In this document: in pieces, positions 10,517 to 59,386 of the stretch
Numbering within the stretch: the stretch's first letter is position 1
Layout: every line of letters starts with the position of its first letter
Source: an uncultured Lachnospiraceae bacterium
GTDB lineage: Bacteria > Bacillota > Clostridia > Oscillospirales > CAG-272
Length of the DNA: 64,000 nt
Reading direction: 5' to 3'
Assembly (NCBI GenBank): GCA_964403505.1
Contig: CAYOFP010000004.1
Span: 33,978-97,977, forward strand
Notes under the pieces: model-generated
Told to the model about the DNA's origin: nothing
Database searches by the model: none
Seen by the model: the letters and a program-made list of their open reading frames with translations, nothing else
Translations under genes and position numbers: made by a program

Positions 10517-10677
10517 GTTTTTCACAACGCCCAGTGAAAAGATAAGAGAGAAAAATTAAGAGAATCGGTATGCTTCGCTATGCGAAGCAAATTATTAAAA
10601 AAGACGCAAAGCGGCTTTTTCTACCGGTTCTCTTCTCTTTTCTCTCTTAGTTTTTCTTTGGCGATGTTTTACATCGC
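10506..10677. repeat. family A nested-palindrome repeat, copy A1 (inverted relative to A3; fills the convergent intergenic region after transketolase)
   Basis: The reverse complement aligns with A3 through AAGAGAGAAAAGAGAAGAGAACCGGTAGAAAAAGCC...AATTTGCTTCGCATAGCGAAGCATACCGATTCTCTTAATTTTTCTCTCTTATCTTTTC. It is flanked by hairpins GGCGATGTGAgttttTCACAACGCC (which overlaps the tkt stop codon) and GGCGATGttttaCATCGCC. Confidence 0.8.
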
Positions 10678-36763: not shown

Positions 36764-36852
36764 TGCTTTGCGAAACAAAGCTTCCGATTCTCTTATCTTT
36801 TCTCTCTTAGTTTTTCTCCGGAAAAAGTCGCTTGATTTTTTAGAGAAGAGTA
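36764..36852. repeat. family A repeat, degenerate/rearranged copy (A2)
   Basis: TGCTTTGcgaaaCAAAGCTTCCGATTCTCTTATCTTTTCTCTCTTAGTTTTTC matches the central hairpin plus polypyrimidine arm of A1/A3. A short inverted AGAGAAGAG follows. Confidence 0.6.
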
Positions 36853-40429: not shown

Positions 40430-40456
40430 AATTTTTATTCCTCCTGTATTATCTTG

Positions 40457-40616
40457 GGCAACACCGCATAGTTCTGACGGTGCAATTGCGCCGACAGATT
40501 TTTCGTCAGACAAAACAAATTGAGGAGGCAAGAGTAGAGCCTCTGCCGACGAAATTTGTGAAGTATGACGAAAAATATGCAAGCAAGTGTGCCGCCGTGA
40601 ATTATGCGGCATTGCC
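40457..40616 (+). repeat. family C foldback repeat, copy C1 (MITE-like, ~160 nt)
   Basis: GGCAACACCGC-ATAGTTC-TGACGGTGCAATTGCGCCGACAG...GTGTGCCGCCGTG-AATTATG-CGGCATTGCC. Terminal inverted repeats and an internal long stem (ATTTTTCGTCAGAC.../...GTATGACGAAAAAT). Confidence 0.85.
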
Positions 40617-41083: not shown

Positions 41084-41114
41084 AAAATGCGCTCTCTTTC
41101 GAGAGCGCATTTTA
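41084..41114 (+). terminator. intrinsic terminator
   Basis: AAAATGCGCTCTCtttcGAGAGCGCATTTTATTT. Confidence 0.8.
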
Positions 41115-41119
41115 TTTAA

Positions 41120-41280
41120 GGCAATACCGCACAAATCCGACGGTGCAATTGCGCCGACAGATTTTTCGTCAGACAAAACAAATTGAGGAGGCAAGAGTAG
41201 AGTCCTCTGCCGACGAAATTTGTGAAGTATGACGAAAAATGTGCAAGCAAGTGTGCCGTTATGATTTGTGCGGTATTGCC
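41120..41280 (+). repeat. family C foldback repeat, copy C2
   Basis: GGCAATACCGC-ACAAATC-CGACGGTGCAATTGCGCCGACAG...GTGTGCCGTTATGATTTGTGCGGTATTGCC. It is flanked by AA/TT and its core is near-identical to C1 and C3. Confidence 0.85.
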
Positions 41281-42790: not shown

Positions 42791-42822
42791 TTGTATATTT
42801 CCTTTCTAAAATTATTTTTTAA

Positions 42823-42983
42823 GGCAATACCGCCGGGCTCTGGCGGTGCAATTGGGCCGACAGATTTTTCGTCAGACAAAACAAATTGAGGAGGCAAGAG
42901 TAGAGTCCTCTGCCGACGAAATTTGTGAAGTATGACGGAAAATATGCGTTTCAAGTGTGCCGTCAAAGCCCGGCGGTGTTGCC
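42823..42983 (+). repeat. family C foldback repeat, copy C3 (inside the symporter 5' leader)
   Basis: GGCAATACCGC-CGGGCTC-TGGCGGTGCAATTGGGCCGACAG...GTGTGCCGTCAAAGCCCGGCGGTGTTGCC. It lies 32 nt upstream of the symporter ATG and 4 nt downstream of the riboswitch terminator U-run. Confidence 0.85.
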
Positions 42984-43016: not shown

Positions 43017-43049
43017 AAAAGGCATAATGCGTCCATTGCATTATCAATT

Positions 43050-43195
43050 TGCTCTGTCCTTTTGCCTGAGAGATTAGTTTCCACTTGCACCTTCGGCACT
43101 CGTCTGCACGAGCTTCTCCAGAGTTCCGTCAATCCACAGTCCCTTTTACCTGAAAGTTTCGCTTCTTCGGCGGGCTGTCCCTTTTCCTGCAGATA
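43050..43195 (-). promoter_or_regulatory. tandem glycine riboswitch
   Basis: The second aptamer on the minus strand reads CTCTGGAGAAGC...GTGCCGAAGGTGCAAG...AAACTAATCTCTCAGGCAAAAGGACAGAG, which closely matches the consensus as I remember it from the V. cholerae/B. subtilis aptamers. The first aptamer reads GGAAAAGGGACAGCCCGCCGAAGAAGCGAAACTTTCAGGTAAAAGGGACTG. It is upstream of an AGCS symporter, a classic glycine-riboswitch target. Confidence 0.8.
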
Positions 43196-44871: not shown

Positions 44872-45073
44872 CGCTGTAAAAAAACGAAAGTTTTTTACAG
44901 CGCCTCAGAGAAAAACGAAGAGAGAAAAGTGAAAAGAATTGGTAGAAAAAGCCACTTATGTGTCTTTTTCAATATAATTTGCTTCGCATAAGCGAAGCTT
45001 ACCGATTCTCTTCTCTTTTCTCTCTTATCTTTTCGTTGGTGATGTAAAAAAACAAAAGTTTTTTTACATCACC
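44872..45073. repeat. family A nested-palindrome repeat, copy A3 (fills the convergent pncB/rpiB intergenic region)
   Basis: The layout is: flanking hairpin CGCTGTAAAAAAcgaaagTTTTTTACAGCG, arm AAGAGAGAAAAGTGAAAAGAATTGGTA, central hairpin GCTTCGCataaGCGAAGC, arm TACCGATTCTCTTCTCTTTTCTCTCTT, and flanking hairpin GGTGATGTAAAAAAAcaaaagTTTTTTTACATCACC. Confidence 0.8.
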
Positions 45074-55170: not shown

Positions 55171-56616
55171 TTATTCCTCGGAAACCGGAAATTCCACCCA
55201 GAATGTACTGCCTGCGCCGAGTGTGCTCATGACACCGTATCTGCCGCCGTGCTCCGCCATGATCCCACGCACGATAGACAAACCGAGGCCTGTTCCCACC
55301 GCAGAGCGTTTATGGAGGGCATCGACTTTATAATACCGCTCCCATATCAGCGGCAGTTTCTCCTCTGCGATTCCATCTCCCGTATCGGTGACCGATATGC
55401 AGATATAGCCGTCGTGCTCTTCTTCGCTCACGTCGACCTTCTTATCCTCTCCCGTGTATGTCACTGCGTTGTTGACAAGGTTATATATCACCTGCAAAAC
55501 ACGGGTCTCATCACCTATGATATAGTGCTTGTTCTCCCCGTGGTCATAGGAGATATCATATCCGCCCGAGGTGAGCTTTACATATCGTGTCATGGCACGC
55601 TCGACGATATCGGTAATACACAGGCGCTTTTTTTCAAAGGTCTGAGCGCCCGACTGCAGTTTCGATATATCGAGCACATCATTTACAAGAGAGGTCAGCC
55701 GCTCCGTCTCGTCGATGATGACCTGCAGGTTCTCGGGTGTATTCTCCGACGGGATATCACGCATCATCTCGCTGTAACCGGATATCATGGTGAGCGGCGT
55801 TCGCAGGTCGTGCGAAATATTAGCGACCAGCTCTTTTTGCAACTGATCCACCTTGGAAAGCTCGTCTTCCGCATAATTCAGCGTGGCGGCAAGCGTATCC
55901 GCCTCAGAATATCCGCCGCCGGTAAACACGGCGTCATAATCGCCCTGCGCCAGGCGCCTCGCCGATCGGGTGAGCGATATGATCGGCTTTGATATTACCT
56001 GAGAAAGCACAAATGCGAGCAGGACCGACAGGATCACAAGGGCAAGCGTGATATAGACAAGTATGGTATTGAGCGTATTTACCGTTGCACTGACGGGGGA
56101 TATGACAGAATTCAAGAATATGATCGCATTATCTCCGTCTGTAGCATGAACACCCGAGAGCACGATACTCTGCTCGCTGTCCTTATCGTTTACATCAGAC
56201 TGATAGACATTCGGCGAATCCTTTAATCTGGAATAATATACGATACTGTCATCCTTCTCCCGTGCCTGATTATAGATCTTCATCAGCCCTGAGATATTCG
56301 TATGATGTATGATACAGTACGATGCGGCATCGACGCTCACCGTGTCAAACGAGCCGAACTGTGCAAGCACGATGATGCATACGTTGTATTCGTTCGCTAT
56401 CTTCTCGGCATTCTCGGCAAAAGTGCCGTCATCGATCGAGCTCTCGATCCTGCTGTATGCCGTCTTTATCTCCCGTATTTTAATCTGCTTATATATATCC
56501 GATAAAAAAACATTCTGACAAAGCCACAAAAGAATGATCGTGACCGAGGCGAAAGCGCCGAAACATGCGAGCAACTTCCACCTTATGCCGAAACGTCTGT
56601 GCTTACGCCCCTTCAA
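55171..56616 (-). CDS. sensor histidine kinase (HisKA/HATPase_c)
   Basis: 481-aa ORF with two TM helices flanking an extracytoplasmic domain, H-box SHDLRTPLT, N-box NLVNNAVTYT, DTGDGI and GTGLGLSIV. Confidence 0.9.
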   Translation of the reverse strand: MKGRKHRRFGIRWKLLACFGAFASVTIILLWLCQNVFLSDIYKQIKIREIKTAYSRIESSIDDGTFAENAEKIANEYNVCIIVLAQFGSFDTVSVDAASYCIIHHTNISGLMKIYNQAREKDDSIVYYSRLKDSPNVYQSDVNDKDSEQSIVLSGVHATDGDNAIIFLNSVISPVSATVNTLNTILVYITLALVILSVLLAFVLSQVISKPIISLTRSARRLAQGDYDAVFTGGGYSEADTLAATLNYAEDELSKVDQLQKELVANISHDLRTPLTMISGYSEMMRDIPSENTPENLQVIIDETERLTSLVNDVLDISKLQSGAQTFEKKRLCITDIVERAMTRYVKLTSGGYDISYDHGENKHYIIGDETRVLQVIYNLVNNAVTYTGEDKKVDVSEEEHDGYICISVTDTGDGIAEEKLPLIWERYYKVDALHKRSAVGTGLGLSIVRGIMAEHGGRYGVMSTLGAGSTFWVEFPVSEE

Positions 56617-57277
56617 AACGGTACCCCACTCCGCGAAGCGTCACGATAAGATAGCTGTATTCACCAAGCGACCGTCTGAGCAGCTTGATATGTGTATCGA
56701 GCGTTCTGTCATCGCCGTAAAAATCGTATCCCCACACCTCGCAGATCAGCTTCTCTCTCGTGAGCGCAATATTTTTGTTTTTGATAAGGAAAAACAAGAG
56801 GTCATACTCCCTCGGCGACAGATCGACACGCTCTCCGTCTATGGTAACGGTACGTGCCGTCATATCGACGGAAAGGCCGCCGCAGGTAAACACCTCGTTG
56901 CGTGCGCTCACCTTCAGCGTGCGCTTCATCACCGCCTCGACACGCATCATGAGCTCCTTTGGCGAGAATGGCTTCACAACATAATCGTCTGCGCCTATCT
57001 CGAATCCGTTTATCCTGTCGTACTCCTCGCCGCGGGCAGATAATATGATGACGGGAATGTCGGAGATATCCTTTATTTTACGGCAGGCGGAAAAGCCGTC
57101 GAGCATCGGCATCATGATATCCATGATGACGATATCGTAGCTGTTCTTGCGGCACAGCTCCACTGCGCTCATGCCGTCCGACGCCTCGCTGACGTCATGC
57201 CCCTCAAACTCCGCATACTTGCGTATCAGGGTGCGTATCTTCTCTTCATCATCGACTATAAGGATATGATATCCCAT
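56603..57277 (-). CDS. OmpR-family response regulator
   Basis: 224-aa ORF with a receiver domain (ILIVDDE...VIMDIMMP) and a winged-helix domain (LTREKLICEVWG...TLDTHIKLLRRSLG). It overlaps the kinase start by 14 nt. Confidence 0.9.
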   Translation of the reverse strand: MGYHILIVDDEEKIRTLIRKYAEFEGHDVSEASDGMSAVELCRKNSYDIVIMDIMMPMLDGFSACRKIKDISDIPVIILSARGEEYDRINGFEIGADDYVVKPFSPKELMMRVEAVMKRTLKVSARNEVFTCGGLSVDMTARTVTIDGERVDLSPREYDLLFFLIKNKNIALTREKLICEVWGYDFYGDDRTLDTHIKLLRRSLGEYSYLIVTLRGVGYRFEGA

Positions 57278-57291
57278 ATTTTTTCACCTCT

Positions 57292-57614
57292 TAAGCAAAG
57301 CCGACAAATCCGAACCCGATTTTAACGGACGGATTTCCGCCTCTGCTTCGTTAAAATACTCGTGAATCCGATAGGATTCACTGCGTTTTGTGCCTCGCAC
57401 AGACAAAAATCCGCTCCGTTAAAATTCTTCGACCTGAAAGAGCAGAATTTAGAGTGATTTTTGGTGCGGAGGAAGCCGCAAGGCTTTGCCTTGCTCGGAA
57501 CGCCCCAAGACTCGACTACGCTCGTCTCGGGGAACCCCACGCGCAATGACGACAATCCGAAAAGCACCGAAATTCTGCTCTTTCAGGCGGGTTCGGATTC
57601 GTCGGCTTTGCTTA
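57292..57614 (-). repeat. family B structured foldback repeat, copy B1 (323 nt, abuts the RBS of the response-regulator gene)
   Basis: The core is near-identical to B2, with one 50-nt insertion (57495-57544). Outer clamp TAAGCA/TGCTTA. The strand is assigned by the orientation shared with B2 and the downstream genes. Confidence 0.85.
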
Positions 57615-57617
57615 CAG

Positions 57618-57643
57618 AAAAAAGCGGACATTTCCGCTTTTTT
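57618..57643 (-). terminator. intrinsic terminator after the htrA-like gene
   Basis: AAAAAAGCGGAcattTCCGCTTTTTT, 4 nt past the stop codon. Confidence 0.8.
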
Positions 57644-57646
57644 CTT

Positions 57647-59041
57647 TTACTGCTGTTTTTCTACCAGCGTAACTTTTACTTCCACCATCTTGCGGCTACG
57701 GGATACCGTAACCGTGACCTCGTCGCCGATTTCATAATCCGCTAGGATCTCACTTATGTCGTCAAATCCCGTGACACTGATACCGTTGATAGCAATAAAT
57801 CTGTCGCCGACTTCAAAATTCTCCTGCGTGTCTGATACGATATATACACCGAGACTATCGATATATTTGCCTATCTCGCTGTTCTTATATTGATAATAAT
57901 CCGACATATCGCTGATCTCAACGACTGACACTCCGAGTGCGGGACGTCCCGATACATAACCGTTCGTTATCAGTTCCTGTGCCACCTCGTATGCCGTGTC
58001 GATCGGTATGGCAAAGCCGAGTCCCTCGATGTCGTCACCCGACGACTTCGCATTGACGATACCAATGAGCTCACCATCCATATTGAACAGGCCTCCGCCC
58101 GAGTTTCCGGGGTTTATCGCCGCATCCGTCTGCAGCAAACGCATTTTATTTCCGTCTATTTCGACCTCACGGTCGAGCGCCGAAATGATACCGCAGGTCA
58201 CAGTGCCTCCGAGCTGCCCGAGAGGATTACCGATAGCGACGGCCTGCTGACCGACGATGAGAGATTCGCTCGAACCGAGCGTCGCGGCATGAAGCGACTC
58301 TGCCTCTATTTTGATGACGGCGATATCCGCTTGTGCATCTGTTGCCACTAGGGTTGCCGTATACTCCGATTCGTCCTTCAGCCTTACCTTTATCGTATCT
58401 GCGCCTGAGATGACATGATTATTTGTGATGATATATCCATCCTCGGAAATAATAACTCCGCTGCCTGCGCCCTCGGAAATATAATTTCCGAAAAACGTGC
58501 CGTTCACGACCGCCTCCGTCGTTATCTCAACGACCGTATCTGCGACGCTCTCGGCAACGGCGGCGACACTCCCCTCGGGAATCTCTACGGTAGTGCCGTT
58601 CGATTCAACCTTATTTACAGTGACGTTTCCGCCGCCGAAATAGCCCGGATTCAACTCTCCGTATAAATACGCTCCTCCGAATCCGCCGGCGCAGGATATT
58701 ACGAGACAGGCAATCAGCAATAAAGCGATTCCGCCTGCTCCCATCCCTCGCTTCTGCTTTTTTTGTTCCGATGGAGCCTGCACCGTGGGCTGTGCATACA
58801 TGTTAGAATATGCGGCTCTTTGGTCGGGATATCCGTTATATACCGCCCGAGGCTCGGGCGCTCTATATCCCGTATCTGCCGGCGGCTCCGGGGATGACGC
58901 CTGAGCGTCAGTGATACTGCTGTCGGAATCGGTATTTACTTCTACTTTTACCTCGTTTTCAGCAGGCGGAGCGGATACAACATTATCGGCTTCTTCGGCC
59001 GGAGTGAAATCTTCTCTTTCAAAATCAAAATCATTATCCAT
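57647..59041 (-). CDS. htrA: HtrA/DegP-like serine protease (S1C) with PDZ domain
   Basis: 464-aa ORF with a low-complexity N-terminus, a TM anchor, the catalytic triad context TNNHV / DIAVIKI / GNSGGGLF, and a C-terminal PDZ-like domain. Confidence 0.9.
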   Translation of the reverse strand: MDNDFDFEREDFTPAEEADNVVSAPPAENEVKVEVNTDSDSSITDAQASSPEPPADTGYRAPEPRAVYNGYPDQRAAYSNMYAQPTVQAPSEQKKQKRGMGAGGIALLLIACLVISCAGGFGGAYLYGELNPGYFGGGNVTVNKVESNGTTVEIPEGSVAAVAESVADTVVEITTEAVVNGTFFGNYISEGAGSGVIISEDGYIITNNHVISGADTIKVRLKDESEYTATLVATDAQADIAVIKIEAESLHAATLGSSESLIVGQQAVAIGNPLGQLGGTVTCGIISALDREVEIDGNKMRLLQTDAAINPGNSGGGLFNMDGELIGIVNAKSSGDDIEGLGFAIPIDTAYEVAQELITNGYVSGRPALGVSVVEISDMSDYYQYKNSEIGKYIDSLGVYIVSDTQENFEVGDRFIAINGISVTGFDDISEILADYEIGDEVTVTVSRSRKMVEVKVTLVEKQQ

Positions 59042-59056
59042 AGTTTCATCCTCCTT

Positions 59057-59329
59057 TAAGCATAGGAGGATAATCCGAACCCGATTTTAACGGACGGATT
59101 TCCGCCTCTGCTTTGTTAAAATACTCGTGAATCCGATAGGATTCACTGCGTTTTGTGCCTCGCACAGACAAAAATCCGCTCCGTTAAAATTCTTCGACCT
59201 GAAAGAGCAGAATTTAGAGTGATTTTTGGTGCGGAGGAAGCCGCAAGGCTTTGCCTTGCAATAACGACAATCCGAAAAGCACCGAAATTCTGCTCTTTCA
59301 GGCGGGTTCGGATTGTTCTCCTATGCTTA
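59057..59329 (-). repeat. family B structured foldback repeat, copy B2 (273 nt, abuts the RBS of htrA)
   Basis: TAAGCA-TAGGAGGAT-AATCCGAACCCG...CGGGTTCGGATT-GTTCTCCTA-TGCTTA, with multiple nested perfect stems (see findings). Confidence 0.85.
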
Positions 59330-59386
59330 TCACAAGCATATTATAGCCATTCAATGTGACGGTTTTATGACGGTTAGCAAAAACAT

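Follow-up and report, generated by a model that had tools for sequence, protein, structure and literature searches.

A probable miniature transposon inserted twice ahead of native Shine-Dalgarno sequences in an htrA/two-component operon

Two structured repeats, here called B1 and B2, adjoin the Shine-Dalgarno (SD) sequences of an OmpR-type response-regulator gene and of the neighboring htrA gene in a 64,000-nucleotide (nt) stretch of DNA from an uncultured Lachnospiraceae bacterium (contig CAYOFP010000004.1; the whole stretch is called the window). We conclude that B1 and B2 are very probably two insertions of a single non-autonomous DNA transposon, a MITE (miniature inverted-repeat transposable element). 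The family to which they belong is a new, previously undescribed MITE, and its habit of lying flush with SD sequences in one orientation sets it apart from ordinary MITEs. The properties that identify it are those of this class: the element is short and non-coding, carries terminal inverted repeats, is dispersed in copies with unrelated flanks, and is absent from orthologous sites in relatives. An initial annotation of the window had placed both repeats and their common orientation correctly, and had entertained a MITE that landed twice as one of two readings. Empty sites in relatives and a multi-copy family in other genomes now bear out that reading.

The two copies and their empty sites in relatives

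We placed the nearest HtrA homologues on the contigs that carry them, and compared three of these relatives with the window (numbers preceded by L denote fetched loci, of which there are 42 in all). The closest, L027, has an HtrA protein 75% identical to that of the window, while identity is 62–63% for L028 and L031. All three keep the gene order aldose-epimerase, htrA, response regulator, kinase, and none carries the element at either site; the spacers of L028 and L031 measure only 19–88 nt. The promoter region of L027 is that of the window, comprising AACCGTCATAAAACCGTCACAT followed by CTATACT, and it continues directly into AAGGAGGATGAAACCATG, such that the sequence upstream of htrA reads ...CTATACTATGACTGTAAATCAAGGAGGATGAAACCATG. 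In the window the sequence is the same, except that B2 is inserted at a TA between the −10 box and the SD. Likewise, the spacer between htrA and the regulator gene in L027 consists of a terminator and TTTTTTCCGGATGAGGTAAAAAAATATG, and its counterpart in the window consists of a terminator and TTTTTTCTG-(TA...B1...TA)-AGAGGTGAAAAAATATG.

At both sites the interruption falls at a TA that directly precedes the native SD on its 5′ side, and this TA appears to be duplicated. Once the element and one TA are removed, the spacers measure 19 versus 19 nt and 27 versus 28 nt in window and relative, and a 2-base-pair (bp) TA duplication therefore fits. TA also flanks nearly every family copy, and the target duplication would most simply be TA. 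We considered whether the SD sequences are carried by the element itself, and rejected this because the same SDs are present at the empty sites and thus are native. The genes flanking L025, a metagenome copy of the window type, were sought in the window as a reverse empty site and are not present there.

B1 and B2 are direct repeats of a palindromic element of 273–323 nt. On the mRNA (minus) strand each copy starts with TAAGCA and ends with TGCTTA, and its first and last 27 nt form inverted repeats with the layout TAAGCA-(9–10 variable nt)-ATCCGAACCCG. Of the inner 12-nt repeat AATCCGAACCCG the window has four occurrences, where 0.5 would be expected. Across 323 aligned element columns the copies differ by 13 substitutions and one 50-nt indel, the latter being the extra hairpin of B1. 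Only two of the substitutions lie in the shared core, just as the initial annotation had counted by eye, and the cores are about 99% identical. The other 11 substitutions, on which it did not remark, fall in two 9-nt patches of the terminal repeats (sense positions 7–15 and 309–317) that pair with each other, and this pairing is preserved in both copies. The open reading frames that overlap B1 and B2 differ between the copies, and hence the element holds no conserved reading frame. The close spacing to the genes that the annotation had reported is also correct: 15 nt separate the proximal end of B2 (59057) from the htrA ATG (59041) and 14 nt separate that of B1 (57292) from the regulator ATG (57277), with the SD alone in between.

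Each copy folds into a Y shape, in which a 27-bp terminal stem closes two long, nearly perfect palindromic arms, and the nested helices that had been listed for the repeats are real components of this fold. B2 reaches a minimum free energy (MFE) of −140.6 kcal/mol (z = −12.4), and B1 one of −177.8 kcal/mol (z = −11.4). Folding is no weaker on the opposite strand (−138 kcal/mol, z = −13.9), and the structure is therefore that of a DNA palindrome and gives no evidence for an RNA that acts from one strand. When sense and antisense folds were compared, the antisense MFE was lower by 7–20 kcal/mol in 10 of 10 copies from other genomes and by about 2 kcal/mol in B2, and only B1 and L025 favored the sense strand. 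Neither these MFE values nor counts of G-U pairs reveal a preference for the mRNA strand. Compensatory changes do exist in the terminal stem, but they are equally valid on both strands. An Rfam search with the element returned nothing at the gathering score and only noise at E ≤ 10.

The other reading in the initial annotation was that of a shared structured 5′ leader, meaning a conserved cis-regulatory RNA or protein-binding platform that is common to htrA and the two-component genes and co-controls both units. Such a structure would sense or transmit envelope or secretion stress. In favor of this reading, the copies share one orientation and lie flush with SDs that belong to two genes of a single stress unit, their fold has extreme stability, and B2 falls within the predicted 5′ untranslated region of htrA. 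However, three related lineages retain the promoter box, the SD and the terminator and have no element at the orthologous sites, and elsewhere the same element precedes unrelated housekeeping genes. Moreover, cores that are ~99% identical point to recent copying rather than to old paralogous leaders, both strands fold equally with the antisense often the more stable, and no Rfam family matches. What would be expected of a cis-regulatory RNA, namely conservation at orthologous positions, related downstream genes, a strand-specific signal and a match to a described family, was found in no respect. The empty sites largely refute this reading, and we regard it as extremely improbable. One part of it survives: B2 lies between the −10 box and the SD and is predicted to belong to the leader of the htrA mRNA, although a regulatory role for it is unsupported.

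A dispersed family beside Shine-Dalgarno sequences

A search with a 20-nt word from the proximal arm identified 23 loci in three uncultured Oscillospiraceae/Eubacteriales metagenome-assembled genomes (MAGs), which hold at least 14, at least 7 and at least 2 copies. The copies in these MAGs are 78–87% identical to B2. A metagenome scan added only two more loci, the metagenome contigs having one or two copies of the element, and no match was found in plasmid, phage and viral-contig collections. All copies have different flanks, and those adjacent to SDs are therefore independent insertions. The genes that follow the SD-adjacent copies are unrelated to one another, and include dnaG (primase), an RlmL-like methyltransferase, an ABC ATPase, RsmG, a UDP-GlcNAc 2-epimerase, a beta-lactamase-fold protein, a DUF4015 protein, a WYL protein and an EngB-like GTPase.

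The 27-bp terminal repeats are present in every full copy, and the family consensus has the ends TAAGCAGAGGAGGCGCATCCGAACACG ... CGGGTTCGGATATGCCTCCTCTGCTTA. Lengths range from 143 to 323 nt, with about 250–320 bp being usual. Among the forms are copies of 251 nt and of 274 nt, one of 148 nt with a deletion, a 143-nt copy with a single arm, and truncated copies. The 251-nt copies (L003, L006, L019 and L023) are without the small GTAAATCC hairpin, and in L003 the element adjoins a fragment of another copy. The 148-nt copy is an internal deletion (L011, 789–936), and the terminal TA of the one-armed copy (L014, 2092–2234) overlaps the stop codon of a fumarase-like gene. A remnant in L024 (180–265) consists only of the last ~32 nt of the proximal arm and repeat (…CCGTTAAAATCGGGTTCGGATT). 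On one side it has a strong promoter-like site and on the other the SD of a gene encoding a product with, by eye, a KsgA/RsmA-like N-terminus, and its orientation is again the same. In the SIG591 MAG a second short repeat, GGCTGGCGAGAGTCGAACTCTTTGCGC, adjoins the MITE ends at four places (L004, ~85–107; L011, 769–787; L015, 231–249; L008, ~1080–1096), and ARAGORN found no tRNA at these sites.

Many copies are at contig ends. Short-read metagenome contigs that carry either the htrA gene of the window or the epimerase gene of SIG588 (L026 and L036–L042) all break inside the element, which demonstrates that the repeat systematically breaks assemblies right at gene starts.

Once all copies are oriented alike, with the proximal end defined as that bearing the ATTTTAACGG arm, a strong asymmetry is evident. 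Of 25 copies, 10 have an SD no more than 3 nt from the proximal end and 13 have one no more than 30 nt away, whereas the distal end is next to an SD in none of 14 (Fisher p = 0.0009). In SD-adjacent copies the element ends 13–17 nt from the start codon. Among random oriented TA sites in the non-coding parts of the same loci, 1.5% are next to an SD (binomial p = 2e-12), and the enrichment of SD-flush positions over intergenic TA sites is about 25-fold. The adjacency of the same element end to SDs far beyond chance is thus a real statistical feature of the family. L025 is likewise SD-adjacent in the same orientation. The initial annotation had expected of an ordinary MITE many copies with random orientation and random distance from genes; the copies are indeed many, but both their orientation and their distance from start codons are strongly non-random.

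At the proximal end, the TA is followed by A in ~19 of 25 copies, and then usually by G or A. An uninterrupted site, CTG-TA-AGGAGAA, in which TAA is the stop codon of the upstream gene, is found in a sister lineage of SIG588 (L032–L034). We infer that the transposase most likely has an oriented preference for TA followed by an AGGAG-like sequence, and this preferred target would resemble the end of the element itself, TA-AGCAGAGGAGG. Beside the proximal ends of copies that are away from SDs, an SD-like sequence is found in 3 of 13 cases, against ~14% expected, an uninformative difference. At the SIG588 locus (L018 and L035), the epimerase protein is 98% identical to that of the sister lineage, and the DNA that they share begins only at TA-AGGAGAA. 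In SIG588 the region upstream of the MITE contains a PadR gene and a terminator; in the sister lineage it contains instead an RmlD-like gene, with the target TAA as its stop codon. This difference indicates a rearrangement with its breakpoint at the element.

The same pattern could instead result from selection after random insertion at TA, if insertions at other places or in the opposite orientation have been lost through disruption of promoters or genes or through termination of transcription. Consistent with this, in the remaining 12 of 25 copies the nearest gene start is more than 30 nt from the proximal end, several of these copies are beside terminator hairpins or face convergent genes as tolerated sites would, and the element contains a hairpin followed by a T-run. 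Yet this hairpin and T-run score as terminator-like on both strands, and for this reason we also rejected a one-orientation terminator as the cause of the bias; an outward sigma-70 promoter, sought as another possible cause, was not found in the element. Furthermore, the near-symmetric repeats would place the same sequence beside the SD in either orientation, and neutral sites upstream of promoters or after terminators far outnumber SD-flush TAs. Selection alone seems insufficient for a ~25-fold enrichment, and we consider this explanation of the pattern unlikely. Local gene direction was used as a proxy for replication, and a strand-specific replication-linked mechanism was not supported, as copies away from SDs have mixed orientation relative to neighboring genes.

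A single-strand, palindrome-associated element of the IS200/IS605 type, inserted by an HUH transposase 3′ of a short fixed target in one orientation, would account for the strict orientation relative to the adjoined sequence and for the extensive hairpin potential on either strand. However, long near-perfect terminal inverted repeats close the whole element, and the proximal flank is not a fixed tetra- or pentanucleotide but is variable apart from TA(A). The spacers at empty sites fit a 2-bp duplication rather than none, and copies away from SDs have no consistent orientation relative to genes. We judge this alternative very improbable.

Several observations weigh against our interpretation of B1 and B2 as MITE insertions with an oriented, SD-directed target preference. 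Neither an autonomous insertion sequence (IS) nor a transposase with matching ends turned up in the window, the 42 fetched loci or the plasmid, phage and viral collections, and no dedicated genome or metagenome search for one was made. Four loci considered as the autonomous parent (L014, L005, L008 and L011) were rejected as one-armed, truncated or deleted derivatives, not longer elements. The window's own genome shows only two copies. With respect to a TA versus a TAA/TTA duplication, the empty sites, which belong to diverged relatives, are consistent but not exact. The two terminal repeats differ only at positions 15–16 and 24, and this near-symmetry offers a cut-and-paste transposase no obvious basis for oriented target choice. 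Both the position of the htrA transcription start and any effect of the element on expression are predictions, and for L018, alone among the seven copies modelled, a loss of SD accessibility is predicted (0.24, versus 0.75 at the empty site; see below).

Predicted consequences for the htrA operon

The features of the locus are listed in the table. Pfam searches confirm the identities proposed in the initial annotation for the htrA, regulator and kinase products, and assign the upstream neighbor of htrA as an aldose 1-epimerase.

Features of the htrA/two-component locus and of the two element copies (window positions; L027, L028 and L031 are the relatives with empty sites)
Feature	Position	Strand	Remark
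B1, 323-nt MITE copy between htrA terminator and response-regulator SD	57292..57614	-	absent at orthologous spacer in L027, L028, L031
B2, 273-nt MITE copy between htrA promoter (−10) and htrA SD	59057..59329	-	absent at orthologous site in L027, L028, L031
B1-specific extra hairpin, ~48–50 nt	57495..57542 (about)	-	not in B2 or any other family member; unique in window
B2 gene-proximal terminal inverted repeat; mRNA strand has anti-SD-like ATCCTCCT	59057..59083	.	8-nt complement of htrA SD
B2 distal terminal inverted repeat; SD-like TAAGCATAGGAGAAC... on mRNA strand	59303..59329	.	
B1 gene-proximal terminal inverted repeat, variant inner patch GTCGGCTTT	57292..57318	.	
B1 distal terminal inverted repeat, variant inner patch AAAGCCGAC	57588..57614	.	
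htrA, S1C serine protease with PDZ domain (Pfam Trypsin_2 + PDZ)	57647..59041	-	
OmpR-type response regulator (Pfam)	56603..57277	-	
Histidine kinase (HisKA + HATPase_c, Pfam)	55171..56616	-	
Native htrA SD AAGGAGGA, flush with B2	59049..59056	-	same SD at L027 empty site
Native response-regulator SD AGAGGTG, flush with B1	57285..57291	-	homologous SD at L027 empty site
Predicted htrA −10 box (TATAAT), lying 11 nt upstream of the distal end of B2	59340..59345	-	TATAAT or TATACT in L027, L028, L031
Direct repeat CCGTCA-N5-CCGTCA, candidate OmpR-type regulator box	59357..59373	-	conserved in all four orthologous promoters
Intrinsic-terminator-like hairpin + T-run after htrA, native to operon	57618..57646	-	found without the element in L027, L031

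Control of the htrA unit likely resides in sequences that are present with or without the element, namely the conserved direct-repeat box and the −10. The box is contained in AACCGTCATAAAACCGTCACAT and is just upstream of a TATAAT that has no good −35; indeed, a simple promoter scan omits the htrA −10 (59340–59345) because no −35 matches. A box next to a −10 in a promoter without a good −35 is typical of activator-dependent promoters, such as those served by OmpR-family activators. As a candidate site for an OmpR-type regulator, the conserved CCGTCA-N5-CCGTCA therefore implies that the htrA/regulator/kinase operon is probably autoregulated.

The ancestral operon was compact, and probably autoregulated, before B1 and B2 entered, each at a TA directly 5′ of a native SD as the empty sites show. 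The htrA mRNA should start a few nt before B2 and carry the whole element as its leader, because the −10 lies 11 nt from the distal end of B2. With B2 downstream of the regulator box and the −10, this leader would bear the Y-shaped structure, in which the SD-like distal repeat would pair with the anti-SD-like proximal repeat so that the element folds on itself. The SDs of htrA and of the regulator gene are predicted to remain about as accessible as they were before insertion. B1, which follows the htrA terminator, would merely be a longer spacer ahead of the regulator gene.

We assessed SD accessibility as the predicted unpaired probability from partition-function folding of seven copies. For the full element versus the empty site, the values are 0.34 versus 0.36 for B2, 0.45 versus 0.54 for B1, 0.82 versus 0.82 for L025, 0.56 versus 0.43 for L010, 0.20 versus 0.24 for L020 and 0.54 versus 0.40 for L023. 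In six of the seven modelled copies, then, SD accessibility with the full element is predicted to stay close to that of the empty site. With no more than the final 45 nt of the element ahead of the SD, the predicted unpaired probability is 0.00 for B2 and L023 and 0.17–0.18 for L010 and B1. The proximal ATCCTCCT of B2 is a perfect 8-nt complement of the htrA SD, AGGAGGAT. These models suggest that the element is self-insulating, and leave room for a conditional effect. A self-insulating fold would explain why insertions flush with the SDs of essential genes persist.

A rival proposal is that the MITE arrived by transposition and has since been exapted, now modulating the adjoined genes as a stabilizing 5′ stem, as a substrate of RNase III or as a switch that sequesters the SD. 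In the last case, loss or non-transcription of the distal SD-like repeat could free the anti-SD-like proximal repeat to pair with the SD, and both the complementarity in B2 and the sequestration predicted without the distal repeat are in keeping with this route. In addition, the perfect helices of 18–27 bp resemble the helices of Correia elements that RNase III cleaves (PMC2229807), and the strong SD enrichment could reflect positive selection. However, the downstream genes have no common function, no outward sigma-70 promoter was found inside the element, and the complete element leaves predicted SD accessibility essentially unchanged, which makes neutrality the default expectation. Exaptation therefore strikes us as doubtful.

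More tentatively than the MITE assignment itself, and with the balance somewhat against it, we suggest that the family is a ribosome-binding-site-homing MITE. Its machinery would recognize TA followed by an SD-like purine run in one orientation and would deliver a self-insulating leader, composed of mutually neutralizing mimics of SD and anti-SD. If the distal end were lost or not transcribed, the element would become a translational silencer of the adjoined gene, and the patchwise divergence of the repeats would represent templated tuning of this switch. The proximal patch of B2 complements the adjoining htrA SD, and the distal patch of B1, AAAGCCGAC, is an inverted complement at 8 of 9 positions of the adjoining terminator arm GTCCGCTTT. 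L025 (285–548) has a third version of the inner 9-nt patch, again self-complementary. One idea, as judged from these three subfamily copies only, is that such patches would arise if the flank served as template for quasi-palindrome conversion and one repeat then corrected the other.

Two other sets of repeats were noted in the window. A pyrimidine-rich motif of ~35 nt, TaCCGaTTCTCTTcTCTTTTCTCTCTTAgtTTTTC, is found at three places, all on one strand (10622–10667, 36782–36827 and 45000–45045, plus strand) with short hairpins flanking each occurrence, and has no Rfam match. Three 133-nt direct repeats, 71–92% identical (40449–40581, 41112–41244 and 42815–42947), are close to a glycine riboswitch at 43044–43131 (minus strand).

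Significance and comparison with known systems

For the window, these results remove a tempting but wrong annotation, since the structure shared by the two genes is not a stress-responsive leader. Bacterial MITEs usually are found where they do least harm. A family that is flush with SDs in one orientation in ~40% of its copies offers a natural case for the study of target-site selection by small transposons, and would show how a perfect hairpin of 270 nt is tolerated in a 5′ leader. Elements of this kind can mislead RNA-motif discovery and can break metagenome assemblies at gene starts.

The arrangement of htrA with an OmpR-type regulator and a kinase resembles the CssRS-HtrA type of secretion-stress unit known from Bacillus. 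As in that type, the HtrA gene is beside the regulator and kinase genes, and a conserved direct-repeat box is found here upstream of htrA. Here, however, htrA, regulator and kinase form one co-oriented unit.

Among known systems, the nearest analogues are bacterial MITEs that duplicate TA, namely Correia/NEMIS and RUP, together with palindromic repeats that are co-transcribed, such as ERIC (PMC2229807, PMC3049150). Correia elements, the MITEs of Neisseria that are also called NEMIS, duplicate a TA target. Like the present family they are short, non-coding and multi-copy, have terminal inverted repeats of ~26 bp and often are co-transcribed with their neighbors, and the hairpin that their repeats form in transcripts is a proposed RNase III site (PMC2229807). 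In contrast, Correia elements are 100–155 bp long and include promoter elements as well as a site for IHF (PMC2229807, PMC3184786), whereas the present element is 250–320 bp long, has two long internal palindromic arms and yielded no promoter-like site. The two share no sequence similarity and their hosts belong to different phyla, and Correia elements have not been described as oriented and flush with SDs.

RUP of Streptococcus pneumoniae is a Firmicute MITE that is found at TA and is mobilized by IS630-Spn1, and its repeats match this IS630-family element (PMC2229807). The evidence was of the same kind as ours, comprising copy number together with presence and absence. RUP differs in being 107 bp long, in its tendency to target IS elements and in having a known parent IS, which the present family lacks so far. 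Of the marks of a MITE mobilized by IS630/Tc1-mariner transposons, a TA duplication would fit the data here, and no parent element offers ends for comparison. Pneumococcal repeats are over-represented between convergent genes and not upstream of genes (PMC3049150).

The ERIC/IRU elements of enterobacteria also are palindromic, intergenic and co-transcribed, and the effect of ERIC on mRNA stability depends on orientation (PMC2229807, PMC3049150). ERIC is 127 bp long, however, acts through RNase E, is not reported to adjoin SDs and is not related in sequence. Neisseria REP2 (CREN) lacks terminal inverted repeats, itself supplies promoter, ribosome-binding site and ATG, and marks a co-regulated set of genes (PMC3184786), whereas the SD and start codon beside the present element are native, the element has no evident promoter and the downstream genes are unrelated. 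In placement there is a likeness, as REP2, along with IR-A/IR-B of Borrelia, lies directly upstream of many genes in a fixed orientation and contains internal stem-loops (PMC3184786).

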